From positions 147,050 to 211,049 of the forward strand of contig CAVVCK010000001.1 in the NCBI GenBank assembly GCA_963746775.1: a stretch of DNA of 64,000 nucleotides, read 5' to 3'. Positions within the stretch are counted from its first letter, which is position 1; every line of letters starts with the position of its first letter. Source of the DNA: an uncultured bacterium (GTDB lineage: Bacteria > Patescibacteriota > JABMPQ01 > CAVVCK01). The notes under the pieces were generated by a model. The model ran no database searches. It saw only the letters and a list, made by a program, of their open reading frames with translations, and was not told where the DNA came from. Made by a program: the position numbers and the translations under genes. Positions 4,460 through 62,640 of the stretch are shown here, in pieces.

Positions 4460-5770
4460 TCACTTTTTAATCATTTTCAACCCTCCCATATAATTCTGTA
4501 AAACTTCAGGAATTTCAATACTTCCATCTTCTTTTTGATAATTCTCTAAAATAGCAATTAAAGTCCTACCAATAGCAAAAGCAGTCGCATCATTCATGTG
4601 AACAAATTTTTTATTCTTGTCTTTATCTATATATTTAGTACCCAGACGTCTCGCTTGATAATCAGTCATATAATCAGCCGTATGTGTTTCTCTATATTTT
4701 CCCTCGCCTGGCATATAACATTCTATATCAATCGCTCGAAAATCTGCTTTACCGCCTATATCACCGCTACATTTCAAAACAACTTGATAAGGAATTTTTA
4801 ATTGCTGCATTAAATACTCTTGGATAGCTACCAATAAATCCTGCTCTTTCAATCCATATTCTCCTTGGATAAAAGTCTCCATTTCTAATTTATCAAACTG
4901 ATGTCTACGAATTATACCTGATGTATCTTTTCCGTAGCTACCAGCTTCTCTTCTATAGGCTGTAGAATAACCAACATATCTAATAGGTAAATTATCTTCT
5001 TTTAAAATTTCACCCATATGTAGAGGACCCAAGGTATGTTCGGCACTACCAATTAACACTGAATCATCTTTCTCTAAATAGTATCTATCATCAATTGGAT
5101 CAAACCGATCCATTTTCTTCATTATCTCTGCTTTTACAATATCCGGCACAACTACGGGAATAAATGGCTTATCAAAAGGATTATTAACCTCATCTGCTAA
5201 TTCTTTTATTATTTTTTTATCCGTTAAAACACTTAATCCAAACTGAATTAAGGCAAATTGTAAAAAGACTGCACTATTAAATAAATAATTAAACCTGGAA
5301 CCAGATATTTTGGATGCTTTTTCTGTATCAATTAAACTATGTATTTCACTTAATTCCATATGATTTTTTGGTTTAAAATCATATTTCAGAATATTTCCTA
5401 CTTTTCTTAAAATTTTGTTTTCTGCCTCACTTTTCCCAAGTGGCGTATCTTCCGAAAGTAGATTGGGTATTTGATAAAGCAACTTTTGAAGTTTGCTATT
5501 TGCTTCTTCAAGTTCCGGTTCTATTTTTTTAATTTTCTCAGAAATACTTTTTGATTCATTTATTATACTTATTCGATCATTTGCACTTGCCTGATTAATT
5601 TTTTCATTAATTCCATTTCTCTGCGATCTTAATTCCTCTACTTCTTTTAAACTTATTTTATATTTTTCATCCAATTCTAAAATTTCATCAAGATTAACTT
5701 TCATATTTCTGTTCTTGATACTTTCTTCTACTTTTTTCCTATTTTCACGAATTGTATTTATATCTAACAT
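4460..5770 (-). CDS. serS: Seryl-tRNA synthetase
   Basis: N-terminal coiled-coil arm (MLDINTIRENRKKVEESIKNR..), class II core with FRRE/GSA motifs; 436 aa. Confidence 0.9.
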   Translation of the reverse strand: MLDINTIRENRKKVEESIKNRNMKVNLDEILELDEKYKISLKEVEELRSQRNGINEKINQASANDRISIINESKSISEKIKKIEPELEEANSKLQKLLYQIPNLLSEDTPLGKSEAENKILRKVGNILKYDFKPKNHMELSEIHSLIDTEKASKISGSRFNYLFNSAVFLQFALIQFGLSVLTDKKIIKELADEVNNPFDKPFIPVVVPDIVKAEIMKKMDRFDPIDDRYYLEKDDSVLIGSAEHTLGPLHMGEILKEDNLPIRYVGYSTAYRREAGSYGKDTSGIIRRHQFDKLEMETFIQGEYGLKEQDLLVAIQEYLMQQLKIPYQVVLKCSGDIGGKADFRAIDIECYMPGEGKYRETHTADYMTDYQARRLGTKYIDKDKNKKFVHMNDATAFAIGRTLIAILENYQKEDGSIEIPEVLQNYMGGLKMIKK

Positions 5771-5808
5771 ATTTTTTCTATCCTTTGGGAAATAAGATTA
5801 ATAATCTT

Positions 5809-7062
5809 TTATTTATTAATACTTTTTTTCTCTTTTTTCTTAATCCTGCCTTTATTTTCCTTATAATAATTAAATAAACAAACTAATATAGCCCCCATGC
5901 CAAATATTACGGCTGATATTTTAACCAAAACCCCAATAAAAGGAATCATGAATAAAATCCACAAAACAAACAGTCCTAAGATGGTAGGTAAAATTAAATT
6001 GCTATATTTCTTTTTACTTTTAGAATTAATGTATTCTAAAATTCGCTTACCTGCCCAAAGCCCCGTATATATTTTTGATACATAAAACAATACACCATAC
6101 ATCAGACCTAAAATAATAGCTAAAGGAATACCTAGAATCGTAATTGCTAATATAATAATAGCTGTAGGTGCCACTATTAATAATCCCAACCCATACAAAA
6201 AGCTTTTACCTGGTTTAGTATTTATATTATTAGCAACTTCTTCTGATTTTTTAGGAAACAATAAAATTGCTACAATGGCTACTATTAATAAAGCAAGCAC
6301 ATTATAAATCTTACCCAAAATATTACCAAACAAATTAGTTATTAATGATCTATTTTTTCTAGCTTTATCTTCCAGTTTTTCCCATTTTTTCTCACCAACT
6401 ATCATAGCTCCATCTTTTATTTCTGCCTCTTTAGGTGTCTTGTACTCTAAATTACCATCTATCTCAGCACTAGACTCAATAACAATCTTTTTACTTGCCT
6501 CACCATTCAAATTCCCGCCAATCTCTCCTAAAATTGTCATTTGCCCTACTCCAAATGTAACATTTCTTTTAACAGTTCCAGATAAATTTACCATACCTCC
6601 ACCAACTAATAAATCTCTGCCAATTTTTCCTCTCTCGCTAACATTAATCATGCCACCAGCCATCATAACATTATCTCTTACTTCTCCATCAATATTTATA
6701 GTTCCACCAGCTGCCATTAAGTCATCGGTTACTTCTCCTATTAATTCTACTGTTCCGCCAGCTACCATCAAATCTCCAAAAACTAAACCATTTATTTTTA
6801 CATCACTGCCAGCCGCAATTACATTACCATTAATATCACCGTTTATGGTCACATTAGCTGCAAATGCTTTTAAATCACCGTTAATTGTACCGTCAACTGT
6901 TATAGTTTCTCCTGTTATCACAACATCATCTTCAATTACTTCATCTTTTGAAATAGTAACAGAACTTTCTTTCAATTTTAAATTGTAAGCAAGTGTTACA
7001 CTGGGAACTAATAATAAAATAGAAAATGCAATTAATAGGAATTTTATTTTATTTTTTAGCAT
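5809..7062 (-). CDS. Membrane protein with bactofilin-like (CcmA/DUF583-type) beta-helix repeats
   Basis: N-terminal signal or anchor (MLKNKIKFLLIAFSILLLVPSVTLA), then about 8 tandem repeats of G-x-[IV]-N/G-G-D-[IVL] (e.g. TINGDINGNVIAAGSDVKINGLVFGDLMVAGGTVELIGEV...), and about 3 C-terminal transmembrane helices. Confidence 0.55.
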   Translation of the reverse strand: MLKNKIKFLLIAFSILLLVPSVTLAYNLKLKESSVTISKDEVIEDDVVITGETITVDGTINGDLKAFAANVTINGDINGNVIAAGSDVKINGLVFGDLMVAGGTVELIGEVTDDLMAAGGTINIDGEVRDNVMMAGGMINVSERGKIGRDLLVGGGMVNLSGTVKRNVTFGVGQMTILGEIGGNLNGEASKKIVIESSAEIDGNLEYKTPKEAEIKDGAMIVGEKKWEKLEDKARKNRSLITNLFGNILGKIYNVLALLIVAIVAILLFPKKSEEVANNINTKPGKSFLYGLGLLIVAPTAIIILAITILGIPLAIILGLMYGVLFYVSKIYTGLWAGKRILEYINSKSKKKYSNLILPTILGLFVLWILFMIPFIGVLVKISAVIFGMGAILVCLFNYYKENKGRIKKKEKKSINK

Positions 7063-29304: not shown

Positions 29305-31005
29305 TTAAATAAATTTATTGTTTTTTAAATAGTCAACAACTTTATCTGCACATTTTTCCATACTTTCCTCTGCAGGTTTTAATTCTATTTCAGGATTTTC
29401 TGGTATTTCATAGGGATCAGAAATTCCTGTAAAGTTTTTAATTTCTCCATTTCTTGCTTTTTTATACAATCCTTTTTTATCTCTTTTTTCACAAACCTCA
29501 AGTGGAGTATTAGTGTATATTTCTATAAAATTATCTATTTTTAACCTTAAATCATTCCTTTGTTTGATATAAGGAGATACAAAAGAAGCTATAACACCTA
29601 CGCTATTTCTACTTAAAAGTTTAGCTACAAAACCTATTCTTCTTATATTTTCATCTCTATCATCTTTAGAAAATCCTAAATCTCTAGTTAAAGATTCTCT
29701 AACAATATCACCGTCTAATCTTTCAACTTTGTATTCATCTTTTTTTAAAATTTCATAAACTTTATCTGCAATAGTACTCTTGCCAGACTGAGAAAGCCCA
29801 GTGAACCATAAAACAAATCCTTTTTTATTTTTATATGTTTTTTTCTCATACATAGAATCTGCTAATGGATTTTTACTATTAGTTAAAACGTTGTAAACCT
29901 CTGGCCTAATTAAATATTCAGGTAATTTTTTCTTATTTTTTACATCTTCTCTCAATTTAGTAATGCTAAAAAAAATAGCATCATCTTCATCACATTCATC
30001 TGCAAAACAATGTTTTTTTCTTCTATTATCATAAACTATTTCTGGAAATTTTAAAATCTCTATACCTATTTCTTCTTTTTTGAAGTTATTAAATATATCT
30101 TGTGCTGTAAATGGTTTATAATAATTTCCCACACCAGCACGATCCCTACCAACTATAAAATGTGAACAACCATAATTTTTTCCGATTAAAGCACGAAAAA
30201 TGGCTTCTCTAGGACCAGCATATCTCATTTTTAAAGGCAAGATACCTAATACCACCTTATTTTTAGGATAATACTTATCAATTATAGCCTCATAGCAGCT
30301 AATAATATATTCATCTTTAAAATTTTCTAATTTCTTTTTGCCAATTACTGGTTGTATAAAAAGCCCATCAACTTTTTTTAAAGCTTCTTTTTGTAAAAAT
30401 TCATGGCCTCGATGAGGAACATTCCTTGTTTGGAAAGCAACAATTTTATTCCATCCCCTACCTTGAAATATTTTTCTTATCTTCTCTGGAGTAAAATTAT
30501 ATTCTTTAAATAATTCTTCTCGACCATCTAATAAAAAAACTTTCCCCCCAATTAAATATTCCTTCATCCGAAAAACATCTTCCACCCCTGGATGCCTAAT
30601 ATCTAAAGTTTTAAAAATATTTTCAGCTAATATTTTTTTACTATATTTATAAACCTCAATATCTTCTAATAAAGCTACCGGGATATTATTATATTTATTA
30701 ACTAATAATAATTTCTGTTTATTTCTTATTCTATTATAATCATCTTTTGAAATATCTAAGACAATTGGTATCGACCACACTAAGCCACTAGATAAACGCA
30801 TTTCTTTTATAACACTTTCAAAATCATCTTCACCTAAAAAGCCTTTTAATGGAGAATAAACACCTCGAGCTATATTTTTTACGTCTTTTAATTGTTCATC
30901 ATTTAAAATCAAAGTGGTATACTCATTCTTTTTACTTAAAATTTCTCTACTCTTATTAGGATTTAGAACACCATCAACTAATTTACCTCCATGAGGTTTA
31001 ATCAT
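29305..31005 (-). CDS. Bifunctional sulfate adenylyltransferase (ATP sulfurylase) / adenylylsulfate kinase
   Basis: N-terminal sulfurylase with QTRNVPHRGHEFL (HxxH). C-terminal APS kinase with P-loop GFVLWFTGLSQSGKST; 566 aa. Confidence 0.85.
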   Translation of the reverse strand: MIKPHGGKLVDGVLNPNKSREILSKKNEYTTLILNDEQLKDVKNIARGVYSPLKGFLGEDDFESVIKEMRLSSGLVWSIPIVLDISKDDYNRIRNKQKLLLVNKYNNIPVALLEDIEVYKYSKKILAENIFKTLDIRHPGVEDVFRMKEYLIGGKVFLLDGREELFKEYNFTPEKIRKIFQGRGWNKIVAFQTRNVPHRGHEFLQKEALKKVDGLFIQPVIGKKKLENFKDEYIISCYEAIIDKYYPKNKVVLGILPLKMRYAGPREAIFRALIGKNYGCSHFIVGRDRAGVGNYYKPFTAQDIFNNFKKEEIGIEILKFPEIVYDNRRKKHCFADECDEDDAIFFSITKLREDVKNKKKLPEYLIRPEVYNVLTNSKNPLADSMYEKKTYKNKKGFVLWFTGLSQSGKSTIADKVYEILKKDEYKVERLDGDIVRESLTRDLGFSKDDRDENIRRIGFVAKLLSRNSVGVIASFVSPYIKQRNDLRLKIDNFIEIYTNTPLEVCEKRDKKGLYKKARNGEIKNFTGISDPYEIPENPEIELKPAEESMEKCADKVVDYLKNNKFI

Positions 31006-31786
31006 TTCTTAAAAAATTAATTATTTTATTATGAACTAATTTATTACTTGCTAAAATCCCTCGTTCATTTTTCCTATTCTCTTCATTATAAGAGATTCTA
31101 TTCCCTATCGTATCAGTTATTTTTCCTCCCGCTTCCCTTAATATAATTTCTGGTGCACAACTATCCCATTTGCCCATTTTATTAGTAAGATTAAAAAATA
31201 TATCTGCTTTATTCTCCGCAATTAAGCCAATTTTAATGCCATTGCTGCCTGATTTTATTATTTTTTTTATACCCATCAATTTTGCTAATTGAATATCATG
31301 TGGTCCTAAGTGATTTCTGCTGAAAATTATCCTGCATTCAGATAAATTATTATTATTTGAAACTTGAAGTTTTTTAATATTACCATTTTCTTTTAGATAA
31401 GCTCCTTTCCTTAATTGAGCATAGTACATTTTATTTTTACTCGGCTGATATACTATTCCCAAAATAGGCTTATTATCCTCAACTAAACCAACCATTATGG
31501 AAAATTCTCCAGTTTTTTGAATGAAATCCATAGTACCATCTAGTGGGTCCACTATCCAAAATTTTTTATAACTTTTATTTATTTTATTATTTGACTCTTC
31601 AGATATTATAGGCCAATTATATTTTTTTAAACCTTCCTCTATTATTTTGTTAGCAACCAAATCCGCTTCTGTTACTGGTGATTTATCTTCTTTATTATAT
31701 ATACTATATTTTTTATTATATATTTTTAAAATTTCTTCGCCAACATTATATATAATATCTAAAGTATTCTCTAATAATTTATCCAT
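30998..31786 (-). CDS. cysQ: 3'(2'),5'-bisphosphate nucleotidase / inositol monophosphatase family (CysQ-like)
   Basis: WIVDPLDGTMDF motif; 262 aa; overlaps the sat/cysC start by 8 nt. Confidence 0.75.
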   Translation of the reverse strand: MDKLLENTLDIIYNVGEEILKIYNKKYSIYNKEDKSPVTEADLVANKIIEEGLKKYNWPIISEESNNKINKSYKKFWIVDPLDGTMDFIQKTGEFSIMVGLVEDNKPILGIVYQPSKNKMYYAQLRKGAYLKENGNIKKLQVSNNNNLSECRIIFSRNHLGPHDIQLAKLMGIKKIIKSGSNGIKIGLIAENKADIFFNLTNKMGKWDSCAPEIILREAGGKITDTIGNRISYNEENRKNERGILASNKLVHNKIINFLRND

Positions 31787-42517: not shown

Positions 42518-44113
42518 TTAATCAATTTTAACAACATTTCCTGGATTAAGATTTTTGTTTATAGGTTTTTTTGTTTTATTATTAAGTTGATTCGGTTTTG
42601 AATTTTTTGAAGATTGATTATTATTATTTCTTTTATCCTCATTTGAATTACTATTCTGGCCTTCTTTCTTTTTCTGGCTCATTAAATCACCTAATAATTT
42701 TTTAAATGGTTGATGATATTCTTCTGATTTACTTTCATTTTTAGATTGATTCCTATTATTACCTCCTCTATATCCTTGTTTGTTGTTCTTCTCATTCACA
42801 GGTAAATCAATATCATCATTCATGCCACTCCAGCGAGCAATTTTCTCTTCTACTATCTCTCGCTTTTTAGCATATCTCTCTCTTGAAACTTTTATAATTT
42901 TTTCTCTGTTACCTTCCTCTTTCCACTCAGGGGGAACAGTACTCGCAGAAAAAGCTTGGCTAGCTACTCCATTTATCATTAATTTCAAATAAATATTATA
43001 TTTAGATAAATTAACTAAATCATTCTCCTCAAAAACAGGTTCAAATTCCTTAGCTAAAAATTCTGAATCCGTACCTCCAATTCTGAAAGTAACTATCGTT
43101 CCTACATTTCCAAAAACGGCATCACGAACTTTAGTACTACCGCCTATTTCAAGCTGACCAATATATTGATGAGCCATAATTAAATCTAGACGATATTTTC
43201 TGGCTTCTGATAAAATATCAGCAAAACTATCAGTGGCAAAATTTTGAAATTCATCAACATATAAATAAAAATCAGCTCGCTCTTCCTCAGGAATATCCAC
43301 CCGTGACATAGCCGCTAATTGCAAATGGGTTACCATCATAGCTCCAAATAAGGCTGAGGCATCTTCTCCGATTCTTCCTTTGGCCAAATTTAAAATTAAA
43401 ATTTTCTTATTATCCATCACTTCTCTAACATTAATGGTAGATTTGGGTTGTCCAACAATATTGCGTATTAGTGAAATAGATAAAAATTGACCAATTTTAT
43501 TTTGAATAGGAGCAATCGCCTCACTGGCAAATTTATCCGGATACTTGGAAAATTCTTCCACCCAAAAAGCTTTAACAATTGGATCTTTAACTTGAGTAAT
43601 AACTTTATTTCTAAATTTTTGATCAGTTAACATCCTCATCGTTCCAAGTAAAGTACTGCCCTGATAATCCAGCAAAGCCAAAATAGTATTTCTTAAAACA
43701 TATTCTAAACGAGGTCCCCAGCTATCTGCCCAAATCTTTTTAAAAACCCCCACCAGACCAGAGGAAATCAAATGTTTATATTCTGGATTATCATTTTCCA
43801 TGACATTAAAAGCAATCGGCCAATCAGCATCACCCGGATTAAAATAAATTACATCGTTAACCCTACTATTTGGTACATAATTAAGCATTTTATCGGCAAA
43901 TTCACCATGAGGATCTACAATACAAAAACCATTGCCATTATTAATATCCGAAATAACTAATTGCTCCATTAAAGTAGTTTTACCCATACCAGTCTTACCA
44001 ACAATATACATATGGCGTCTGCGATCATCTCTTAGAATACCAAACTTTTTTCTTTGGTTTCTAAAATTAGTTTCAGCAAAAATAGTTATTTGATCGTCTT
44101 GTTTCTTGGGCAT
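42518..44113 (-). CDS. Soluble VirD4/TraG/TrwB-family (type IV coupling protein-like) ATPase with N/K/Q-rich C-terminal tail
   Basis: Walker A HMYIVGKTGMGKTT, followed by CIVDPHGEF..VIYFNPGDADWPIAFNVME (T4CP DPKGE...fNPL pattern). Walker B YLYVDEFQNF, then RKYRLDLIMAHQYIGQL...FGNVGTIVTF (T4CP Q..QL / N motifs). No N-terminal transmembrane helices. The last 120 aa or so are low-complexity. Confidence 0.65.
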   Translation of the reverse strand: MPKKQDDQITIFAETNFRNQRKKFGILRDDRRRHMYIVGKTGMGKTTLMEQLVISDINNGNGFCIVDPHGEFADKMLNYVPNSRVNDVIYFNPGDADWPIAFNVMENDNPEYKHLISSGLVGVFKKIWADSWGPRLEYVLRNTILALLDYQGSTLLGTMRMLTDQKFRNKVITQVKDPIVKAFWVEEFSKYPDKFASEAIAPIQNKIGQFLSISLIRNIVGQPKSTINVREVMDNKKILILNLAKGRIGEDASALFGAMMVTHLQLAAMSRVDIPEEERADFYLYVDEFQNFATDSFADILSEARKYRLDLIMAHQYIGQLEIGGSTKVRDAVFGNVGTIVTFRIGGTDSEFLAKEFEPVFEENDLVNLSKYNIYLKLMINGVASQAFSASTVPPEWKEEGNREKIIKVSRERYAKKREIVEEKIARWSGMNDDIDLPVNEKNNKQGYRGGNNRNQSKNESKSEEYHQPFKKLLGDLMSQKKKEGQNSNSNEDKRNNNNQSSKNSKPNQLNNKTKKPINKNLNPGNVVKID

Positions 44114-44257: not shown

Positions 44258-45562
44258 TCACTCCACTGGCAAATCTACTGGTGGTTCTTTAGTTTTTGCT
44301 TCAGATCTAGAGATAGTCGGAGCTTTAACTGTAATATATGGAAAATGAAAAACAGTAGCAATTTCTTCAATATTTAGAACAAAAGGAGAAGCAACTTGAT
44401 CCATTTCACGACTTTTGTAATTTCTCATCAACCTGCGTTCCCTTCTTGGATTTCTATATTTCTGGAAATACTCAACTTTTGACAAAGATTTTTCATTAAG
44501 CCTAAATCCATTAAGGAATTGATCATTGAAAAGACTAACTGATCCAAAAATAGGAGCCGCTCCTTTGGCTTTATTAAATACTTCTTTGCGAGCTATATAT
44601 ATAAATCTAAATTTAACCTCATATGCAGTCTTAGATAAACTTTTTTCAATAGCTTCTACTACTTTTTGTTCTCCTGGAGATAAATATTGCACCAAGGATG
44701 GTACATCCATTTTACCCTCAGATGATTCCACTTCTTCAAATCCTAGGGTAGATTCTATCCCTTTAAAAAGTCCATGTAATAAACCTACACTAGATCTTAA
44801 TGGTCTCTCAATAAGACCTACTTTTTCTTCAACAGCTTTACCGATTAATTTATTAACTACTTTTTCCCCCTCTTTCTTCCACTGATCACGAATAGGCTTA
44901 ATTATAAATTGAATCCATAATTGTTCTCCTTCTCCAAGCCTTGACATCATTTCTGTTAATACAGATAGTGGATCAATAAATTTATTTTCTTTTTCCCCTA
45001 ATTTATTTTCGAATTCATAATAAGTCTTAATTGGATAAGCATCATCCTTAGCTAAACCAAATTCTAGACCGTACATTTTATATTTATCATTAGGATAATT
45101 ATCTGGAGCAAACTTAGTATAATCTTCTACCTCAGTAATTTCTGCCTCTGGATATTGTGAATAGAGACTTGCTTCAACCAAGTCTCTAAAATAATCAGGT
45201 GTTCTAACAATAAAACGCACATTGCCATTAATACTAACCAATTCTAAGCTTAAATATACCTGCGTCTCTCCTTTAAAATATTTTTCAACAAAATTACGTC
45301 CAGACTCAATACCATAGCAACCAGCTAAAACTTGCTCCATTGCACTTGGATTTTTATCACTCTCAGGTGACACAGTAACAGCTAAATAAATAAATTTAAT
45401 AGATTCTATAAACTTAGCTCGTTTTTTTAGTAACCAAATATAGTAAATTAAGAATAATAAAGGAGGAATGGTAAGCCACCATATCCTTGAGAAAACCCAT
45501 AAAGTTAAGCTCCAAAACTCCAAAAAATACTCTAATTGTTCATAAATAAAAGAGTAATCCAT
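44258..45562 (-). CDS. Hypothetical membrane protein (N-terminal TM hairpin plus ~390-aa soluble domain), partner of the T4CP-like ATPase
   Basis: 434 aa. Hydrophobic segment around aa 15-45 (FLEFWSLTLWVFSRIWWLTIPPLLFLIYYIWLL). No recognised motif. Lies immediately upstream of the ATPase in the same orientation. Confidence 0.4.
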   Translation of the reverse strand: MDYSFIYEQLEYFLEFWSLTLWVFSRIWWLTIPPLLFLIYYIWLLKKRAKFIESIKFIYLAVTVSPESDKNPSAMEQVLAGCYGIESGRNFVEKYFKGETQVYLSLELVSINGNVRFIVRTPDYFRDLVEASLYSQYPEAEITEVEDYTKFAPDNYPNDKYKMYGLEFGLAKDDAYPIKTYYEFENKLGEKENKFIDPLSVLTEMMSRLGEGEQLWIQFIIKPIRDQWKKEGEKVVNKLIGKAVEEKVGLIERPLRSSVGLLHGLFKGIESTLGFEEVESSEGKMDVPSLVQYLSPGEQKVVEAIEKSLSKTAYEVKFRFIYIARKEVFNKAKGAAPIFGSVSLFNDQFLNGFRLNEKSLSKVEYFQKYRNPRRERRLMRNYKSREMDQVASPFVLNIEEIATVFHFPYITVKAPTISRSEAKTKEPPVDLPVE

Positions 45563-45668: not shown

Positions 45669-46805
45669 TTAAGCAATCTGCTGGGCTAATTTATATGTTC
45701 CTTTTTCAACTCTTTGAAATAAATTTTTATCTTGTAGAGTTAAAATTATAGTATTCTCTTTAACCATTCTCTGCTTTAATACTTCTTTTATAATTTTATT
45801 TTTTGATAAGGGTTTGCTTTCATTTTTTAGAACTGAGGCAATAATATCCTTGACAGTACCTTCTTTATAGCCCCATTCTTTCAAAGCATATATACCTCTT
45901 CCAACTAAAATAAAACGAGAATCTTTAATCAACTCATTATGAACAGTTTGCATATTAGCCTGTCTTTTAGAAAATCCTTTATTGTTGATCATTTCTGTAA
46001 TTTTTCTAAAATGTAGTGGTTTTCCATTTTTCTTCAATACAATATAAGCCCTATCTCTAACACCACGAGGCATAATTTCATTCCAATGATTTAGGCCCCA
46101 TTCATTATAAGGATTCTTCTGAATTTTTTTACTTAAATTAAGATAAGATAGTAATGCCTTATTGTTACCCAATAGTTCCATTTCTTCAACCAAATCACTA
46201 TTTTTTGAGATTAGCTCTGTAAATTTATCTTCAGAAAATGGTTTATTTTCTTTCTCTAGTACCCTAATTGCAGAATTAATAATTTTCTCAGCCATTTTTA
46301 TATCAGAATTTTTTAATCCCCAAGCTTTTTTAAGCCTATCATTTTCTTTAAAATCTATAAATCTATCACTCAATTTTAAAATAAATTCAACTAAATTTCC
46401 ATGAGCTTTTTCATGTTGTAACTTTTCAACGCATTTACCTACCAAATCATTATGACTCATCAATTCACCATGTTTTGATAATAGTTCTTCCAAAGAATCT
46501 TCTAAAAGTTTAATATGACCGGCTGCTTTAAATTTTTTAAGTTCAGATAGAGTAGAAGATTCTATTTGTCTTACTCTCTCTCTAGTAATTCCATATTCTT
46601 TTCCGATTTCTTCTAATGTTTTTTTCTTACCACCATCAAGTCCAAAACGTTTTATAATAATATCTCTGCTTCTTTTTTGTGATAATTCATCTAATAATTT
46701 ATATATCAAATCAGCCGGACTTAAGCCGGAAAAATTACACTCCTGATTATTATTATATTGTATATTCTTTAAATTTTCTGTCATTTTATATAATCTTTTA
46801 TACAC
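45669..46805 (-). CDS. DNA-binding protein with an N-proximal sigma-70 region-4-like HTH and a C-terminal HARE-HTH-like winged helix
   Basis: aa 55-100: DIIIKRFGLDGGKKKTLEEIGKEYGITRERVRQIESSTLSELKKF (sigma region 4.2 pattern). aa 235-300: RDRAYIVLKKNGKPLHFRKI...SRFILVGRGIYALKEWGY (HARE-HTH pattern). No sigma region 2. Confidence 0.55.
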   Translation of the reverse strand: MYKRLYKMTENLKNIQYNNNQECNFSGLSPADLIYKLLDELSQKRSRDIIIKRFGLDGGKKKTLEEIGKEYGITRERVRQIESSTLSELKKFKAAGHIKLLEDSLEELLSKHGELMSHNDLVGKCVEKLQHEKAHGNLVEFILKLSDRFIDFKENDRLKKAWGLKNSDIKMAEKIINSAIRVLEKENKPFSEDKFTELISKNSDLVEEMELLGNNKALLSYLNLSKKIQKNPYNEWGLNHWNEIMPRGVRDRAYIVLKKNGKPLHFRKITEMINNKGFSKRQANMQTVHNELIKDSRFILVGRGIYALKEWGYKEGTVKDIIASVLKNESKPLSKNKIIKEVLKQRMVKENTIILTLQDKNLFQRVEKGTYKLAQQIA

Positions 46806-46915
46806 AATTTGATTGTATATAATTGTTTAATTTTTATTTAGTTTATCATAAATTATGAATATGTCAAGCAATCAAGAGAGTTTTTTATCAAATTTTACAT
46901 AGAAATTACTATTTT

Positions 46916-47221
46916 TTATATTTTATCAATATATTGCTTTATTCTGGCGTCTTCTCGCTTAACTACTTCACTTTCTTCATCTTCATAACACCTAATACCT
47001 TTAGTATGCATAGGCCGCCTGGCATCAAAATGAAGATCTATTATAAGTATGTTTTCCTGATTATAATGACAGTTAATATGAAATCTGGGATAAAAAGATG
47101 CTCCCATTCTTCTTATAAAACTTTCCTTGCCACTTCTTGGATCACGCCAAGGTTTATATCCTAGACGGCGCATTAATACGGTTGGATTCTGATTAAATTT
47201 TTTACTTACTTTTATTTGCAT
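46916..47221 (-). CDS. Hypothetical protein (101 aa)
   Basis: An ORF with good coding periodicity, arranged in tandem with the two upstream genes. No motif recognised. Confidence 0.35.
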   Translation of the reverse strand: MQIKVSKKFNQNPTVLMRRLGYKPWRDPRSGKESFIRRMGASFYPRFHINCHYNQENILIIDLHFDARRPMHTKGIRCYEDEESEVVKREDARIKQYIDKI

Positions 47222-47225
47222 TATT

Positions 47226-47534
47226 TTAATATTTAGCTGATTCTTTTTTAATTTCTTCTTTTAATTTCGCACGTATAGTATCATCTATCTGATCAGGCAG
47301 CATGTCTCCTTCGGGATTATGAATTGTTGCTTCTTCGTAAATTTTACCATCTATTTTTCTTGCTTCGTCTTTTATCTCTGCTTTTGCCTCATCATTTATC
47401 TCGACTTTTCCATCTTTATTAAAAAAATCAGCCAGCTCTAGCGAGGCATTATTTTTAAGCCAAAATCCTCCCACAACTGCTAGTCCCAATAAAATTAATA
47501 AAATAGCTATAAATGAATAGAGTAATACTTTCAT
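47226..47534 (-). CDS. Small membrane protein (N-terminal TM helix, acidic and basic C-terminal tail)
   Basis: 102 aa; 4-nt overlap with the upstream methylthiotransferase gene. Confidence 0.35.
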   Translation of the reverse strand: MKVLLYSFIAILLILLGLAVVGGFWLKNNASLELADFFNKDGKVEINDEAKAEIKDEARKIDGKIYEEATIHNPEGDMLPDQIDDTIRAKLKEEIKKESAKY

Positions 47535-48772
47535 AAAATCAAATTACTTTCTAATATTTTTATTATTTTCAATTTGTTTCCTAAATTCTCCTTGCTGTTT
47601 AATTTTACCTTAAAATAGTTTTTTGTAAAACCTGAAAAACAACTATTTTTCCTATTCTCGAATAAAATTTCCTCTTTTTTACCCAACATTTTCTTTTCAA
47701 AATCACCCATAAGTTTTTTATTTATTTTTTCTAAAATTTTTACTCTTTCTATTTTTTTATTATAATTTATTTGCTTATCCATATTACAAGCAACAGTTCC
47801 TTCCCTTTTAGAAAAAGGAAATATATGTATTTTAGAAAATTTTACTATTTTAACAAATTTACATGTCTCCATAAATTCGCTCTTACTTTCTCCAGGAAAT
47901 CCTACTATTACATCAGTAGTAAAATTAAAATCAGGATATTTTTTATAAATTTTTTTAACAATGTTTAAATAATCTTTTGTATTATAATGCCTATTCATCC
48001 TTTTCAAGACCGAGTCAGAACCACTTTGTAATGATAAATGTAAATGTTGGCATATTCTATCATTTTCGAATAAAGACAAGAATTGATCATTTATAGAATC
48101 AGGATTGATAGATCCAAATCTAATTCTATTAATATTTGTTTTTTCTAATATTTTTTTAACTAAATTAGTTAGATCTAATTTATTACTCAGGTATTTCCCA
48201 ATATTTACTCCTGTTAATAAAATTTCTTTGCAGCCTTTTCTCTCTTTTTCTTTTATTTCTTTTAAAATTTTATCAGATTCTATACTAACCATTTTTTCCC
48301 TTATATAAGGTATAATACAATAAGTACAAAAATTATTACATCCATCTTGTATTTTTATAAAAGCTCTAGTATGGATTTTATTGTCTATTTTATTTGTTCT
48401 ATTTTGAACAATTATTTTGTTCTTTACAAATTTATTATAAATTAAACCTGGTATTTTATTTTTATCCTCAATAAATAGATCTACTTCGGATTTTAAGCTT
48501 TTAGCACAACCACACCCTATAATTATAGTTTTTTTATTGTTATTTCTTATTTTATTGATTTCTCTTCTGGACTTAGTAACCGCTTTGGCTGTTATACAAC
48601 AAGTATTTATAATATATAAATCTGCCTTCCGTCCCGTAGGGGCTATGATATCTATTTCCAAACCAAATTTATCTAATTCTTCGGCTATTTTATTAGATTC
48701 TGCTTGATTGAGTCTGCATCCTAGGGTCTTTATAGATATTTTCATAATAAAATTAATTATAATTACAACCAT
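47531..48772 (-). CDS. Radical-SAM methylthiotransferase, MiaB/RimO/MtaB family
   Basis: MTTase N-domain (IKTLGCRLNQAESNKI...IINTCCI), radical-SAM CNNFCTYC (CxxxCxxC), TRAM-like C-terminus; 413 aa. Confidence 0.8.
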   Translation of the reverse strand: MVVIIINFIMKISIKTLGCRLNQAESNKIAEELDKFGLEIDIIAPTGRKADLYIINTCCITAKAVTKSRREINKIRNNNKKTIIIGCGCAKSLKSEVDLFIEDKNKIPGLIYNKFVKNKIIVQNRTNKIDNKIHTRAFIKIQDGCNNFCTYCIIPYIREKMVSIESDKILKEIKEKERKGCKEILLTGVNIGKYLSNKLDLTNLVKKILEKTNINRIRFGSINPDSINDQFLSLFENDRICQHLHLSLQSGSDSVLKRMNRHYNTKDYLNIVKKIYKKYPDFNFTTDVIVGFPGESKSEFMETCKFVKIVKFSKIHIFPFSKREGTVACNMDKQINYNKKIERVKILEKINKKLMGDFEKKMLGKKEEILFENRKNSCFSGFTKNYFKVKLNSKENLGNKLKIIKILESNLIL

Positions 48773-49420: not shown

Positions 49421-50167
49421 TTAATTAATACGCATCATAATATTATTTCTTTCAAAAAACATTCGATCTTCTATGAATGGTCTTATTTCATCAGCCCTCA
49501 TAGTGTCTATATCCACCATTTCTCCAATAACTTTGATTCTTTCTCCTTCTCTCAGAACTAGTCTTGGCACTATCATCGCGTCTTTACCTAAAATATGCCA
49601 TTTTTCTCTCTCTAGAGAAACTATTTCAAATTGATCTTTGTTATTAAAAGATACAATAACGCCAGCAACTAGTCCTCTCTCGGGAGCATTCCACATATCA
49701 TGCCTTTGGTAAAACATCATTCCATACGGAGGAATTCTTTTTTCTAATGAATTCTCTAATTTTGCTCCTAGTCCGCAAACATACAATAAAGATCCTAAGG
49801 AAATACTTACTAAAATATTTATCAAAACTATTAAAATTGTATTGTACCTATAGCCAGATTTGGTTTTCTTAAAATTATAGTAAGAAAATATTACAAAAAT
49901 AACTAAAAATATCAGCCAAAAATAAGGCAAGGTTATTAAAATAAATTTAAATAAACCATGCCCTAGCTTCTCATAAAGATCCCAATCATTATTGCCAATC
50001 ATAAAAATAACTAAAGAAGTGGAAATACTGCCCAACATTAAAGAAATAACAAAAATAACCCAAAATATTACCTCCCGAATAGAAAACATCCATTTAGGTT
50101 TTGGTTCAATTTTATTCTCTTTAATTGTTGATAAGACTTGCTTAGATAAGTCTTCTGTTTTAGTCAT
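49421..50167 (-). CDS. Putative anti-sigma factor (polytopic membrane protein cotranscribed with the ECF sigma)
   Basis: Starts 20 nt after the ECF sigma stop. N-terminal cytoplasmic segment, 3-4 TM helices, about 100-aa C-terminal domain. Assigned by position only. Confidence 0.45.
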   Translation of the reverse strand: MTKTEDLSKQVLSTIKENKIEPKPKWMFSIREVIFWVIFVISLMLGSISTSLVIFMIGNNDWDLYEKLGHGLFKFILITLPYFWLIFLVIFVIFSYYNFKKTKSGYRYNTILIVLINILVSISLGSLLYVCGLGAKLENSLEKRIPPYGMMFYQRHDMWNAPERGLVAGVIVSFNNKDQFEIVSLEREKWHILGKDAMIVPRLVLREGERIKVIGEMVDIDTMRADEIRPFIEDRMFFERNNIMMRIN

Positions 50168-50187: not shown

Positions 50188-50775
50188 TTAAATTTTAACA
50201 AATTCACCTTTGAATTGCTTTTTAGCTCTATTTATTAAGGTGGAAATAGTGCCTATGGGTTTTTTTAAAATATCTGATATTTCTTCATAACTTTTTTCTT
50301 CAAAAAACCTTAAAATTAATACCTCTTTATATTTATCATCCATTTTTTGCAAAACTTCCTCCATCATTTCCCTTAAATATTTTCTATCTATTTCCTTATC
50401 TATATTAAAATCTGATTTTATATTGGCTATAATCCTATCATTGATTTCTTCATCCAATCCAGCAACTTTAGGTCTGGCATTATTTTTTCTAAAATTATCA
50501 ATAACTATATTATGAGCAATACGATAAATCCAGGAGGAAAATTTCAATTTTTGATCAAAATCATTTAGATTTTGATAAACTTTTATAAAAATTTCTTGCA
50601 GTAAATCTTCGGCATCTTCTTTCTTAACATTGGTTATTCTTTGTATATATCTTAGCAATTTACTTTCATATCTTTTTATTAATAAAGCAAAAAAATCCTG
50701 ATTTTCCAGCGTCAGTTTAACCAAACTTTCATCCGAATTTTCATCTAAATCACTAACATTCGGTATTTTTTGCAT
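50188..50775 (-). CDS. ECF-type RNA polymerase sigma factor (sigma-70 family)
   Basis: Region 2 (EDLLQEIFIKVYQNLNDFD...FSSWIYRIAHNIVIDNFRK) and region 4 (EVLILRFFEEKSYEEISDILKKPIGTISTLINRAKKQF). Confidence 0.85.
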   Translation of the reverse strand: MQKIPNVSDLDENSDESLVKLTLENQDFFALLIKRYESKLLRYIQRITNVKKEDAEDLLQEIFIKVYQNLNDFDQKLKFSSWIYRIAHNIVIDNFRKNNARPKVAGLDEEINDRIIANIKSDFNIDKEIDRKYLREMMEEVLQKMDDKYKEVLILRFFEEKSYEEISDILKKPIGTISTLINRAKKQFKGEFVKI

Positions 50776-50885: not shown

Positions 50886-51524
50886 TTATTTCTTCTTTTT
50901 TGTTTTTGCTTTTTTCTTGGCAGCCGGTTTTTTCTTAACAACTTTCTTAGCTGCAAGTCCTTTAGTTTCAGCTTTATTAACTTTTTCTGATTTCTTTTCC
51001 ACTTTAATCTCTTTGTTCTGCTTTGGTTGGTTAGCTTTAGATGCAGGTACAGCTACATTGATAGATAATAGCTTTAATACTTTATCAAGCTTTTCATTTA
51101 GCATTTTAAACTGCTTGCTTGATTCTTCTCCAGTATTACTATTTCTATTTCTATCATCTCTTCTACCACCTCTTCTATCGCTTTTATCATTTTTACCATC
51201 AAAACATTTACTACAATAAATAGGTTTACCACTGGTTGGTTTAAAAGGTACTTCACAATTTTGACCACATTCATCACAGACAGCACTAAACATAGCAGTT
51301 CTTCTTGAGTCTCTTCCACCAAAATCACGTCTGCCGAATCCTCTGTCATCTCTTCTATTACTTCTTTTATCATCTCCGCCTTTACTTTTGAAACAGTCGC
51401 TACAATAAATTGGTTTGCCGCCACTTGGTCTAAAGGGTACTTCACAATCTCTGCCACATTCATCACAGACTGCATGATGCATTTGCGGCCTATCTGATCG
51501 GTTATTACGATTAAAATTTCCCAT
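50886..51524 (-). CDS. Tandem zinc-ribbon protein with lysine-rich histone-H1-like C-terminal tail
   Basis: Two repeats of CDECG..CEVPF.P..GKPIYCS.CF; R/D-rich linkers; C-terminus AAKKVVKKKPAAKKKAKTKKKK. Confidence 0.5.
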   Translation of the reverse strand: MGNFNRNNRSDRPQMHHAVCDECGRDCEVPFRPSGGKPIYCSDCFKSKGGDDKRSNRRDDRGFGRRDFGGRDSRRTAMFSAVCDECGQNCEVPFKPTSGKPIYCSKCFDGKNDKSDRRGGRRDDRNRNSNTGEESSKQFKMLNEKLDKVLKLLSINVAVPASKANQPKQNKEIKVEKKSEKVNKAETKGLAAKKVVKKKPAAKKKAKTKKKK

Positions 51525-59762: not shown

Positions 59763-60056
59763 GGGAATTTATTTAAATTATATCAAAGTAAAGTGAATCT
59801 GCTAGATAAAAATTATCTATTTTTTGTTTATTTTTAGGCAAAATAACCATTTTAACTTGACATTTACCCCTAAATTATGCTTGACTTTTTTGTACGGTGT
59901 TTTACAGTATAAGTGAAAAGTTGTTTAGACTTTTATTTTGAAAGATGCATATATATTTCAATTTTAAATGAATTGAAATGTAGAATGTTCCTTCAAAACT
60001 TTTTTCTGAAACACAACAACAATTCCTCTTTTAAAAGAGGGGTAGGGAGATTTACT

Positions 60057-61400
60057 ATGGAACCCAAGGTTGGCGATATCATCAATAATAAGTATGAACT
60101 GATCAGGGAACTTGGCAGCGGAAGTATGGGAGTGGTATTCCTGGCCATCCACCAGCTCTTGAGGGCTCGTGTGGCCATCAAGTTCATCAATTCAGAGTTG
60201 GTACAGAATAAGGAGGCTAGGAGACGCTTCCTTTTGGAAGCACAAATCGGGGCAGAGATTAAACACCCCGGAGTAGTGTCTGTTTCAGACATCGAGGCAA
60301 ATGGGTACATCTTCATTGTGATGGAGTACCTCGAAGGCAGGGGTCTCGATAAAATTATTAATGAAAAAGGCTGTATTGTTGAAATTGAGTTTGCTATTGA
60401 TGTAACGATACAAATCCTGCGTGCACTCCTTGTGGTGCACGAAAAAGGGATTATCCATCGTGATCTCAAACCGGAAAACATCTTCATCACAGAAGGTGGT
60501 GAAGTCAAAATTATGGATTTCGGGATCGCCAAGGCTAGATCGGCAGCCCTCGCCACTACACATGAGCTGACCAGCGTTGGGACAATCAATGGGACCCCCC
60601 ATTATATGTCCCCGGAACAGTGCTGCGGTTCAAAGAGCATCAACCATCAAACCGATATCTGGTCGGTAGGCATCATGCTCTACGAGATGCTTACGGGGTG
60701 TTTCCCCTACATAGGGGACACTTCTAGCGATATTATAAATAGAATCCTTGACGGGGGAACCAATCCCCCTAAGGCTCTAAATCCGACTATTTCAGAAGGA
60801 CTCGAAAGAGTCATTCTGAAGGCAATGGAACCGGTACCGCAAAAACGGTACCAGAGTGCCAAGGAGTTCTTGGTCGACCTCGAGAGTCTTGAAGAACATC
60901 CTGCCTATACACCTCCTCCTCCGACGCCTACGACCACCGTACACGAGGCCGAAACGGTTATCGTGCAAAAGGTCGACGACTCAGAACCAAAAAAAAAGCA
61001 CTGGAGACTTCCTGTGACAATCGCTATCGCCGTTCTGATCATCGGTGCTTTCACGGGATGGTTCATCTCTCAACCTCAACCTTCTACTGAACCTCAAGTC
61101 ACTGATCCAACTCCAACGAAAGTTGTTGAATCTACACCCGTCGCTCAAGCTCAAGCTGAACCGGAACCACCCGCTCCGCCTGAGAAAGCTACACCTCCGC
61201 CTGAACCCGAACCTCAGCCAAGCGCCGAAGCAACAGCCGAACCCACCAAGCGCGCCCCACCTCCCCGACCAGCAAAGCAGGCCACTCCCGAGCCTCGCCG
61301 CCCTCACCCCACTGTCGAAGAGGAGCCACCACCCATCATAGTGGTTCCGCAAAGGCCACCTACTCCTCCCCCCATCATCGTTCTTTCTCAAAGAAGGTAG
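60057..61400 (+). CDS. Hanks-type Ser/Thr protein kinase with TM helix and Pro-rich C-terminal extracellular tail
   Basis: GSGSMGVV (Gly loop), VAIKFI (Lys), HRDLKPENIFI, DFGIAKA, GTPHYMSPE; TM WRLPVTIAIAVLIIGAFTGWFI; P/E/T-rich tail. Start taken at ATG 60057 (RBS aGAGGGGtaGGGAG) rather than the ORF-track ATG 59913, which adds 48 AT-rich codons. Confidence 0.85.
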   Translation: MEPKVGDIINNKYELIRELGSGSMGVVFLAIHQLLRARVAIKFINSELVQNKEARRRFLLEAQIGAEIKHPGVVSVSDIEANGYIFIVMEYLEGRGLDKIINEKGCIVEIEFAIDVTIQILRALLVVHEKGIIHRDLKPENIFITEGGEVKIMDFGIAKARSAALATTHELTSVGTINGTPHYMSPEQCCGSKSINHQTDIWSVGIMLYEMLTGCFPYIGDTSSDIINRILDGGTNPPKALNPTISEGLERVILKAMEPVPQKRYQSAKEFLVDLESLEEHPAYTPPPPTPTTTVHEAETVIVQKVDDSEPKKKHWRLPVTIAIAVLIIGAFTGWFISQPQPSTEPQVTDPTPTKVVESTPVAQAQAEPEPPAPPEKATPPPEPEPQPSAEATAEPTKRAPPPRPAKQATPEPRRPHPTVEEEPPPIIVVPQRPPTPPPIIVLSQRR

Positions 61401-61422
61401 ACTAGAGATCCTTCTAGTCTAC
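61397..61422. repeat. 9-bp perfect inverted repeat overlapping the kinase stop codon
   Basis: GTAGACTAG-agatcctt-CTAGTCTAC; not followed by a T-tract. Confidence 0.4.
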
Positions 61423-61497
61423 CAAACCCCTTCAATTACAACTTTAAATATACCCGCCTCTGACGGCGGACAGATAAAATTTACACAAACAAAAAAG

Positions 61498-61532
61498 AGA
61501 CTAAGCAAAATTACAGCTTAGTCTTTTTTTTA
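61498..61532. terminator. Rho-independent terminator between the convergent island genes
   Basis: aaaaaagAGACTAAG-caaaattacag-CTTAGTCT-TTTTTTTT. Confidence 0.6.
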
Positions 61533-61601
61533 TTCTTTTAAATTTTAATTATATATAGAAAGTAATAATAATAAAGGGAAGCCGTGTGTGCGAAAACGCG
61601 G

Positions 61602-62426
61602 CTAAAAGGTGAGAAAGAGCGGTGAGGCGATGGCGAGGGGCTCCCAGTTGGAGGAGGAGTCCTCGCCTTCGGCGTGGGGTGAAGCGCGAGCGCTTCTTCT
61701 TAACCGGTAGGTCTCAACTATCAGTAGGATTGCTCCCACTGCAGCAATACCTAACCCGATAAAGAAACTCGCATCGCCCAAGTCTTGTCGCCAAGACAAA
61801 TGCGACGGATCCTCCTGGAAGCGAACATATTCCGCGATCCAGGAAGGAATACCCACGCCCACCATCCCGGCAAGCCCGATTCCGAGAAGCCCCCACCCTG
61901 CAGGCCAAAAACGGGTATGAGAAGGTGGAGGAGTGGGGAGGTAGGGGGGAGTCCCACTAAACTGAACAGGAGGAGGAATGGGCTCCTCCTCTTCAACCGG
62001 CTCAGGAGAAGTTACGCACTCCTCCTCCAAAGCCTGGATACGTCCTTGGAGATATTCCCTTAAGAACATATCCTCTGCCACCACCCTCACAAGGTCCTCA
62101 GGAGAAAAACCCTCCAAAGCCTCTTGATAAAGAGGAATGGCTTCACACCTCCTTTCTTCCCCGGCCAGCTCCAAACAAGCCGCCTGGTACTGGCGAAGAG
62201 TGGCAAGATTATTCGCCTCACCATCCCCACAAATATCAGCTGCCTCTTGGAGCGACTGGAGGACCCCCTCGATCCTCGAAGGATCCCGACAGTCAACCGG
62301 CACCTGGCCGGCCAGTCGTCGAACCTCGCTCGAAGAACAAGGATTCCTTTCCTCCTCGGCCAAAATGGCCGAGGAATTAAAGAGAACAAAAATAACCGCG
62401 AAAATAACATGCGAAATACGTTCCAT
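61602..62426 (-). CDS. Secreted Cys-containing protein with Pro-rich linker and two C-terminal TM helices (hypothetical)
   Basis: Start taken at MERISHVIFAVIFVLFNSSAILA (signal peptide), which is preceded by AAGGAGGAAGGGACA. The ORF-track start at 62474 adds 16 aa without an RBS. Region with 5 or more Cys; PPVQFSGTPPYLPTPPPS linker; TM helices GWGLLGIGLAGMVGVGI and FFIGLGIAAVGAILLIV. Confidence 0.5.
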   Translation of the reverse strand: MERISHVIFAVIFVLFNSSAILAEEERNPCSSSEVRRLAGQVPVDCRDPSRIEGVLQSLQEAADICGDGEANNLATLRQYQAACLELAGEERRCEAIPLYQEALEGFSPEDLVRVVAEDMFLREYLQGRIQALEEECVTSPEPVEEEEPIPPPVQFSGTPPYLPTPPPSHTRFWPAGWGLLGIGLAGMVGVGIPSWIAEYVRFQEDPSHLSWRQDLGDASFFIGLGIAAVGAILLIVETYRLRRSARASPHAEGEDSSSNWEPLAIASPLFLTF

Positions 62427-62640
62427 TGTCCCTTCCTCCTTGAAATTAGGGCACAATTGCCCAAAAGGGATCAATTTATAATATATATAAATAGTGATTA
62501 TGTCAAGTTTTTTTGATTTTTATTGTTTATATGATCTTTATATATATATTTATTTATAAGAAAATAATAATTAGGTATTTATCCATATTTAGACTATAAA
62601 TACACCCTTTTTTTATAAAAAAATTTATAGAAATAAAAAT

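Follow-up and report, generated by a model that had tools for sequence, protein, structure and literature searches.

Patescibacteria account for a large part of bacterial diversity. Their genomes are tiny, with few recognisable regulators, and these bacteria have become genetically tractable only recently. We describe here a gene of this group, T, whose product joins a sigma-70 domain 4 to winged helices, and several described systems share parts of this architecture. Primary sigma factors (RpoD/SigA) resemble T in the fold of region 4, with regions 4.1 and 4.2 and a segment corresponding to the C-terminal tail. Unlike these proteins, T has no regions 1.2, 2 and 3, and its sigma-4 module is N-terminal rather than C-terminal. 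In sigma70, H5 is a free C-terminal helix that is set in the beta-flap hook (PMC2988021). The equivalent of H5 in T is not a free end and leads into a winged helix.

The delta subunit (RpoE) of Firmicutes and T have in common a HARE-HTH winged helix with the motif D-x-RF...G-x-G-x-Y/W-x-L-x-x-W. The N-terminal domain of B. subtilis delta occupies a site on RNA polymerase between the shelf and the jaw of beta-prime, and delta acts through a disordered C-terminal region (net charge -47) that is needed for activity (PMC7749165). Delta has about 170-180 aa, its N-terminal domain is acidic and it ends in a long acidic tail, whereas T is 371 aa long, has a basic HARE-HTH and is tail-less. The HARE-HTH is N-terminal in delta and internal in T (residues 236-305), and T comes from a different phylum. 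Bacterial proteins in which HARE-HTH is joined to sigma-derived modules, as in T, were reportedly described by Aravind and Iyer (2012, Cell Cycle 11:119) as sharing traits with sigma factors and with the alpha subunit of RNA polymerase. T itself has no alpha-CTD match.

Three or four winged helices in series, as in T, also occur in the tandem arrays of SelB (WH1-4), UFL1/DDRGK1, Dcc1 and RPC62. The winged-helix part of T aligns loosely to the SelB C-terminus and to the other three (Foldseek, E 1e-4 to 1e-2), with just 9-13% identity and rmsd above 11 Å. By TM-score, the RNA- or protein-binding SelB, UFL1/DDRGK1 and Dcc1 are slightly closer to T than RPC62 of RNA polymerase III. The likeness to these arrays is one of architecture, and is no evidence of homology or common function.

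A gene with the same pair of domains is already catalogued. Ca. Southlakia epibionticum ML1 SEML1_0294 (1050 bp, 349 aa) is annotated as 'RpoS' and matches PF04545 and PF05066 (PMC10633639, Tables S1 and S2); the name comes from Prokka. The protein has been parsed into a tri-helical and three winged domains, and the DPAM parse merges residues 6-155 into one domain (PMC10633639). The gene is tabled as a core family that is enriched in Patescibacteria and essential at all three Tn-seq time points (PMC10633639), with 24 insertions in the input and 1-2 after selection (Table S1 of the same paper). The next gene, SEML1_0293, encodes a coupling-protein-like ATPase (2766 bp) and is non-essential, with 87-120 insertions (PMC10633639), so polarity does not explain the essentiality of SEML1_0294. 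RpoD of this organism (SEML1_0063) has regions 1.2, 2, 3 and 4, and is essential (PMC10633639). Like the T family, SEML1_0294 has the Pfam pair and lies in the order TopA, T, coupling-protein-like ATPase that is found in Saccharibacteria loci. From domains and synteny, and not from an alignment, we infer that SEML1_0294 is the counterpart of T. The main text of the Tn-seq paper is silent on SEML1_0294 (PMC10633639), and our literature search found no paper that discusses the T family. The family is already catalogued in databases and flagged as essential in a supplementary table.

T lies in a window of 64,000 nucleotides (the whole stretch of DNA that was analysed) with about 30% G+C and mostly minus-strand genes (Table 1). 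A database protein, P0001, is 100% identical to T over 371 aa and begins at the ATG at 46784; this start is more likely than the GTG at 46805. Residue numbers refer to the 371-aa protein unless the 378-aa form is stated.

Table 1. Coordinates of T, its modules, its promoter-like site and the two following genes in the window
Feature	T residues	Position	Strand	Basis	Remark
Gene B		42518..44113	-	Pfam, NCBIfam	531-aa ATPase like VirD4/TrwB/TraD coupling proteins
Gene A		44258..45562	-	Structural model, Foldseek	434 aa; long N-terminal hydrophobic helix and VirB4/TrwK-like fold
Gene T	1-371	45669..46784	-	ORF list, P0001, AlphaFold	371 aa; sigma domain 4 and four winged helices
Alternative GTG start of T		46805	-		378 aa; stop codon 45669-45671
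Sigma-70 domain 4 (regions 4.1-4.2)	23-85	46530..46718	-	Pfam, NCBIfam, Foldseek, profile	Primary-sigma-like
WH1	86-158	46311..46529	-	AlphaFold	Neutral to acidic; poorly conserved
WH2	159-235	46080..46310	-	AlphaFold	Poorly conserved
WH3 (HARE-HTH)	236-305	45870..46079	-	Pfam, NCBIfam, AlphaFold	Basic
WH4	306-371	45672..45869	-	AlphaFold	Second, marginal HARE-HTH-like winged helix; basic
Promoter-like site		46840..46867	-		TTGACA-16-TAAACT with upstream TG; 56 nt before the T ATG; window copy of the conserved promoter

Pfam assigns Sigma70_r4 (PF04545) to residues 38-91 (51.4 bits, cut-off 24.1, E 7e-14) and HARE-HTH (PF05066) to residues 251-311 (65.2 bits, cut-off 25.9, E 7e-18), both in the 378-aa numbering. 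No matches to the Pfam families Sigma70_r2, Sigma70_r3 or RNA_pol_A_CTD were found in T at E ≤ 0.1. A role of T as a replacement for the alpha-CTD was rejected, as RpoA of this genome has a CTD of its own. Among NCBIfam models, the delta-subunit domain model TIGR04567 (83 positions) reaches 54.5 bits (cut-off 42). About thirty NCBIfam sigma models match T solely via region 4 (residues ~29-108) and far under their cut-offs, the best being MzaA, RpoD, RpoS and SigB, with sigma-32, sigma-K and ECF models lower. Assignment of T as the MZA defence sigma MzaA, and with it a defence-system origin of T, was rejected, since region 4 alone aligns (65 bits in NCBIfam against a cut-off of 800; positions 603-674 of 683 in PADLOC).

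An AlphaFold2 model from 79 homologues (pLDDT 91.7, pTM 0.82) has five folded modules. WH1 and WH2, each searched alone, gave no Pfam matches. WH4 alone scores 25.2 bits against HARE-HTH, just below the cut-off of 25.9, over the full profile length. A single-sequence search of the C-terminal half of T against the PDB gave a weak match to delta (E 0.16).

In domain-only Foldseek alignments against the PDB, the sigma-4 module and SigA region 4 structures share 40-47% identity, with an rmsd of 1.2-2.5 Å, and the T family profile matches S. aureus RpoD domain 4 (E 2e-19). In an alignment of 79 T-family sequences (38-82% identity overall), the positions equivalent to E. coli sigma70 R554, R562, L573, E574, T583, R584, E585, R586, R588 and Q589 are 92-100% conserved; the equivalent of K593 is not conserved. 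These ten positions are reported as -35 contacts in the structure of Taq sigma-4 with -35 DNA. Their conservation could come instead from the fold or from contacts with RNA polymerase. The segment homologous to the sigma C-terminal tail is present and, like regions 4.1 and 4.2, is primary-sigma-like. According to the profile and the AlphaFold model, the H5-homologous part runs straight on from sigma-4 and continues as the first helix of WH1 (residues 86-104), an arrangement that would argue against canonical flap docking of T. Long Foldseek alignments of T to sigma-4/flap chimeras raised the possibility that helix 86-104 mimics the flap tip helix, an idea that was dropped. The rmsd of these alignments is about 7 Å, and by Foldseek and profile the helix is homologous to sigma's own tail.

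WH3 is the most conserved module of T, with a mean top-residue frequency of 0.76 and the motif PQTVHNELIKDxRFVLVGRGxYAL. In its third helix T280, H282, N283 and K287 are invariant, and Q279 occurs in at least 90% of sequences. Mean family charges are +4.8 for sigma-4, -4.3 for WH1, -1.0 for WH2, +5.9 for WH3 and +4.4 for WH4; the T protein of the window has +9 in WH3 and +7 in WH4. T can be seen as three basic HTH modules carried by a scaffold that is acidic or neutral. For comparison, 80 residues of S. aureus delta have a charge of -13. An acidic disordered C-terminal tail is absent from T, which ends in the basic WH4 (AlphaFold model and charge count).

Most of the domain claims of the earlier sequence-only reading of this DNA, which had proposed Pfam and AlphaFold as checks, hold. 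Its sigma-70 region-4-like HTH is borne out by the Pfam score and by the RpoD domain 4 profile match. The C-terminal HARE-HTH is also there, with its motifs and with both the Pfam and the TIGR04567 score, at a residue range about ten residues away from the one proposed. That reading had placed one such domain beside sigma-4; the domain is present, but in the AlphaFold model it is one of four winged helices that come after sigma domain 4. Region 2 is missing as claimed (no region 2 or 3 match, and the rest of the model consists of winged helices), and we agree that T is for this reason not a conventional sigma factor. The Pfam check gave Sigma70_r4 and HARE-HTH, both above cut-off.

The T family is large and Patescibacteria-wide. 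At least 7,899 homologues were found at E ≤ 0.001, and an exhaustive HMMER search at E ≤ 1e-30 gave 624 clusters at 50% identity. All of the 120 best homologues carry both PF04545 and PF05066 (336-413 aa, 86-99% query coverage), so the domain pair in T is not a product of chance. The homologues are labelled Parcubacteria or Patescibacteria, and some are termed delta subunit by JGI annotation. Relatives occur at no fewer than 579 loci in species-representative genomes. The best 80 of these are from Parcubacteria-type genomes, Saccharibacteria (including a cultivated Nanosynbacter), Doudnabacteria, Uhrbacteria and others, and the few that bear labels of other phyla are taken to be binning errors. 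A full RpoD, sought in the 80 related loci for comparison of region 4, was not found there.

Just three of 80 viral-contig matches to T are full length and the rest are phage sigma region 4; on this count, we rejected a phage origin of T. The three full-length relatives are divergent (23-37% identity) and lie on IMG/VR contigs L082, L083 and L097, which are classed as viral; the protein on L097 has 466 aa (4815-6215). They may be copies carried by phages, or the contigs may come from Patescibacteria and be wrongly classed. Another divergent relative, P0315 (contig L081, 2540-4198), is extended at the N-terminus and carries DnaA domain IV at the C-terminus (Bac_DnaA_C, E 1e-22). It adjoins parB and a gene for a 455-aa sigma70-family protein, an arrangement seen on one contig only.

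The genes that follow T encode proteins of the type IV secretion family. The model of A (pLDDT 85) has TrwK/VirB4 structures as its top 14 PDB matches (probability 0.85-1.0), and the matched part is presumably the VirB4 N-terminal domain, going by the known VirB4 layout. B matches TrwB_AAD_bind, DUF87 and TraG-D_C in Pfam. Saccharibacteria have A and B as one fused gene (e.g., L051, 7053-9701), and the 824-position PHROG profile phrog_5156 is matched by both. Together they resemble a type IV secretion family ATPase in two pieces, with a VirB4-like fold in one and a VirD4/TrwB-like motor in the other. Of the 5,713 VirD4-like genes that a published survey found in Patescibacteria, just 148 are near virB4, and its authors suggested exaptation (PMC12102498). 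A and B appear to be the 'orphan T4CP' of that survey.

In 54 of the 76 informative loci among the 80, A or the A-B fusion directly follows T on the same strand, and in five more it is up to three genes away. The T-A(-B) order spans Parcubacteria, Saccharibacteria, Doudnabacteria and others. A Saccharibacteria subgroup (17 loci) keeps T without neighbouring A-B. Upstream neighbours of T vary by lineage and are LeuRS, SecDF, or TopA with DprA. In the window, the minus-strand region upstream of T contains a gene of the methylthiotransferase family (UPF0004 and radical SAM, 47531..48772) and, at 46916-47534, two small ORFs of 101 aa and 102 aa, the latter with an N-terminal hydrophobic segment and a weak match to phrog_32549. 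Neither small ORF has a Pfam or NCBIfam match, and neither is conserved beside T in other loci.

A consensus TTGAC(A/T)-N17-TGnTAnAAT is conserved upstream of T. TTGAC occurs in the intergenic region upstream of T in 66 of 68 loci and in 32 of 103 controls (Fisher p 4e-20), and the full -35/-10 pattern in 42 of 68 and 12 of 103, respectively. The controls are the regions between other, divergently oriented genes, where promoters must lie. No other gene family in these loci is anywhere near the frequency of TTGAC found upstream of T. TTGAC is present in the T-A gap in 3 of 55 loci, and the 106-bp gap of the window has no promoter-like site and no terminator. The TTGAC promoter of T and the signal-poor T-A gap indicate that T heads an operon with A and B, whose promoter has a -35 box unusually close to consensus. 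No second conserved motif that could be a WH3 site was found in T promoters beyond the -35 and extended -10 boxes. The perfect -35 box of T may just mark a strong housekeeping promoter.

The sequence-only reading had T at the head of a string of three small genes that ends in the methylthiotransferase. T is on the minus strand, so this string lies upstream of it. The context of homologues, which had been named as a further check, gives a different operon, T-A-B, with T as first gene (54 of 76 loci) and with a promoter of its own. The suggestion of a '-35-competing' regulator has fared better, and fits the conservation at the sigma70 -35-contact positions, the basic character of sigma-4, WH3 and WH4, and the TTGAC box of T itself. 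The other suggestion, association with RNA polymerase, is made less likely by a HARE-HTH that is basic and has no acidic tail, and by the continuation of the H5 equivalent into WH1.

We tentatively favour an account in which T is an essential, -35-box-binding, multi-HTH DNA-binding factor that acts at promoters and is probably autoregulated. The sigma-4 module would be a copy of the -35-reading domain of the primary sigma, with an HTH that binds TTGACA-like -35 hexamers as region 4 of sigma-A does. WH3 and WH4 would bind flanking DNA and so provide affinity that isolated sigma-4 lacks, with WH1 and WH2 serving as a scaffold. Once bound to a promoter, T would compete with or modulate the sigma-A holoenzyme. 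The consensus -35 promoter of T would be one of its targets, and this would set the level of the operon encoding T, the VirB4-N-like protein and the coupling-protein-like ATPase. We infer DNA binding, a TTGACA target, competition with sigma-A and autoregulation from the domain identities, residue conservation, charge pattern and conserved operon and promoter that are observed for T. The fusion of one member to DnaA domain IV, another HTH that reads dsDNA, and the conserved polar residues of the third WH3 helix count for DNA binding. The slightly closer likeness of the winged-helix part to RNA- and protein-binding arrays counts against it. If T repressed nothing but a dispensable operon, its essentiality would have no explanation, so T would need many other targets.

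It is possible, although we consider it unlikely, that T is instead a Patescibacteria-specific accessory subunit of RNA polymerase, with sigma-4 on the beta flap and the HARE-HTH on beta-prime. Sigma-4 would dock on the flap in trans or after release of sigma-A, the HARE-HTH would bind like the N-terminal domain of delta, and T would have a part like that of delta, RbpA and CarD in related phyla, tuning initiation, recycling or promoter selectivity. Against such an arrangement, the jaw of beta-prime and the tip of the flap are on opposite sides of RNA polymerase. Regions 4.1 and 4.2 and the sigma-tail segment are all present and primary-sigma-like, the HARE-HTH passes the delta model, JGI calls some family members delta subunit, and a protein that is essential, core and highly conserved is what a partner of a conserved machine would be. 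The shelf/jaw site of the delta N-terminal domain (PMC7749165) provides a precedent for the beta-prime contact, but the HARE-HTH of T is basic where that of delta is strongly acidic, and T does not have the acidic tail that is essential for delta activity. Nor does the tail segment of T resemble the free H5 of sigma70 (PMC2988021), as it runs into WH1 in a compact model, and the DPAM parse of SEML1_0294 likewise merges this part into one domain. In addition, Southlakia RpoD has a region 4 of its own. A more extreme proposal, that T is an unconventional sigma factor with winged helices in place of region 2, has the sigma-4 module and the Prokka name of the Southlakia counterpart in its favour, but we regard it as very improbable. 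There is no region 2 or 3 match in Pfam or NCBIfam and no sigma-2 structure among the 50 Foldseek matches listed, and, to our knowledge, all members of the sigma70 family rely on region 2 for core binding and -10 melting. A split, two-subunit sigma was rejected, as the upstream genes are LeuRS, SecDF, or TopA with DprA, with no conserved small region-2 partner.

The conserved operon could also indicate that T is a DNA-recognition or adaptor partner, or a local regulator, of the co-transcribed VirB4-N-like and coupling-protein-like ATPase, bringing DNA to the motor like a relaxosome or coupling-protein accessory factor. The same-strand T-A(-B) order, the absence of a promoter signal between T and A, the VirB4/TrwK fold of A and the TrwB_AAD_bind and TraG-D_C matches of B agree with this, as does the location of most Patescibacteria VirD4-like genes away from virB4, where they may be exapted (PMC12102498). 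We nevertheless find the idea doubtful, given that the Southlakia ATPase is dispensable and the T counterpart essential, that the 17-locus Saccharibacteria subgroup keeps T without adjacent A-B, and that a local accessory factor would typically be far less conserved in sequence than T. Somewhat less probable still is a nucleoid-associated or chromosome-maintenance role (organisation of the origin or of partition) in which T merely reuses HTH modules. Several basic HTH modules, the DnaA domain IV fusion beside parB, the frequent TopA and DprA neighbours and the essentiality of the Southlakia counterpart are consistent with such a role. However, just one contig has this fusion and the neighbouring parB, and the selective retention of -35-type residues suggests a specific hexamer rather than generic DNA binding.

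A bolder version of promoter binding, to which we give little credence, is that Patescibacteria split promoter recognition between two essential proteins, with T as a trans-acting '-35 reader'. In an equally speculative elaboration, T would replace sigma-A region 4 on the beta flap, or hand -35 promoters to the holoenzyme. If this were true, T would be a lineage-specific general transcription factor or an extra RNA polymerase subunit, linked physically or regulatorily to an orphan DNA motor of the type IV secretion family. Whichever role it has, T is a phylum-wide gene, reported to be essential, and built from the DNA-reading module that is most conserved in the transcription machinery. Its role bears on how Patescibacteria recognise or police promoters, on why an orphan type IV secretion family ATPase stays beside T, and on whether sigma domain 4 can act outside a sigma factor. 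The TTGAC-N17-TGnTAnAAT promoter is directly useful for the design of expression tools in Patescibacteria.

The window also encodes a complete ECF sigma factor with regions 2 and 4 (50188..50775, minus strand), followed by a gene for a 248-aa membrane protein (49421..50167, minus strand) that could be its anti-sigma factor. The gene at 50886-51524 encodes a 212-aa protein with two repeats of a treble-clef zinc finger (PF23477, E 6e-33). Its tail is rich in lysine, and the protein possibly binds nucleic acid. An apparent truncation of groEL at the window edge was dismissed as an artefact of the ORF listing. Between hrcA and groEL is a stretch of about 50% G+C (59913-62474) in this genome of about 30% G+C. 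It contains an ORF for a Ser/Thr protein kinase (59913..61400, plus strand; Pkinase E 3e-54) and an unannotated 290-aa ORF (61602..62474, minus strand), and looks like foreign DNA or a chimeric assembly. At 29305-31786, a gene for a fused ATP-sulfurylase/APS-kinase (566 aa) adjoins a gene of the inositol-monophosphatase family (CysQ-like), a PAPS-making pair that seems unexpected in a reduced genome.
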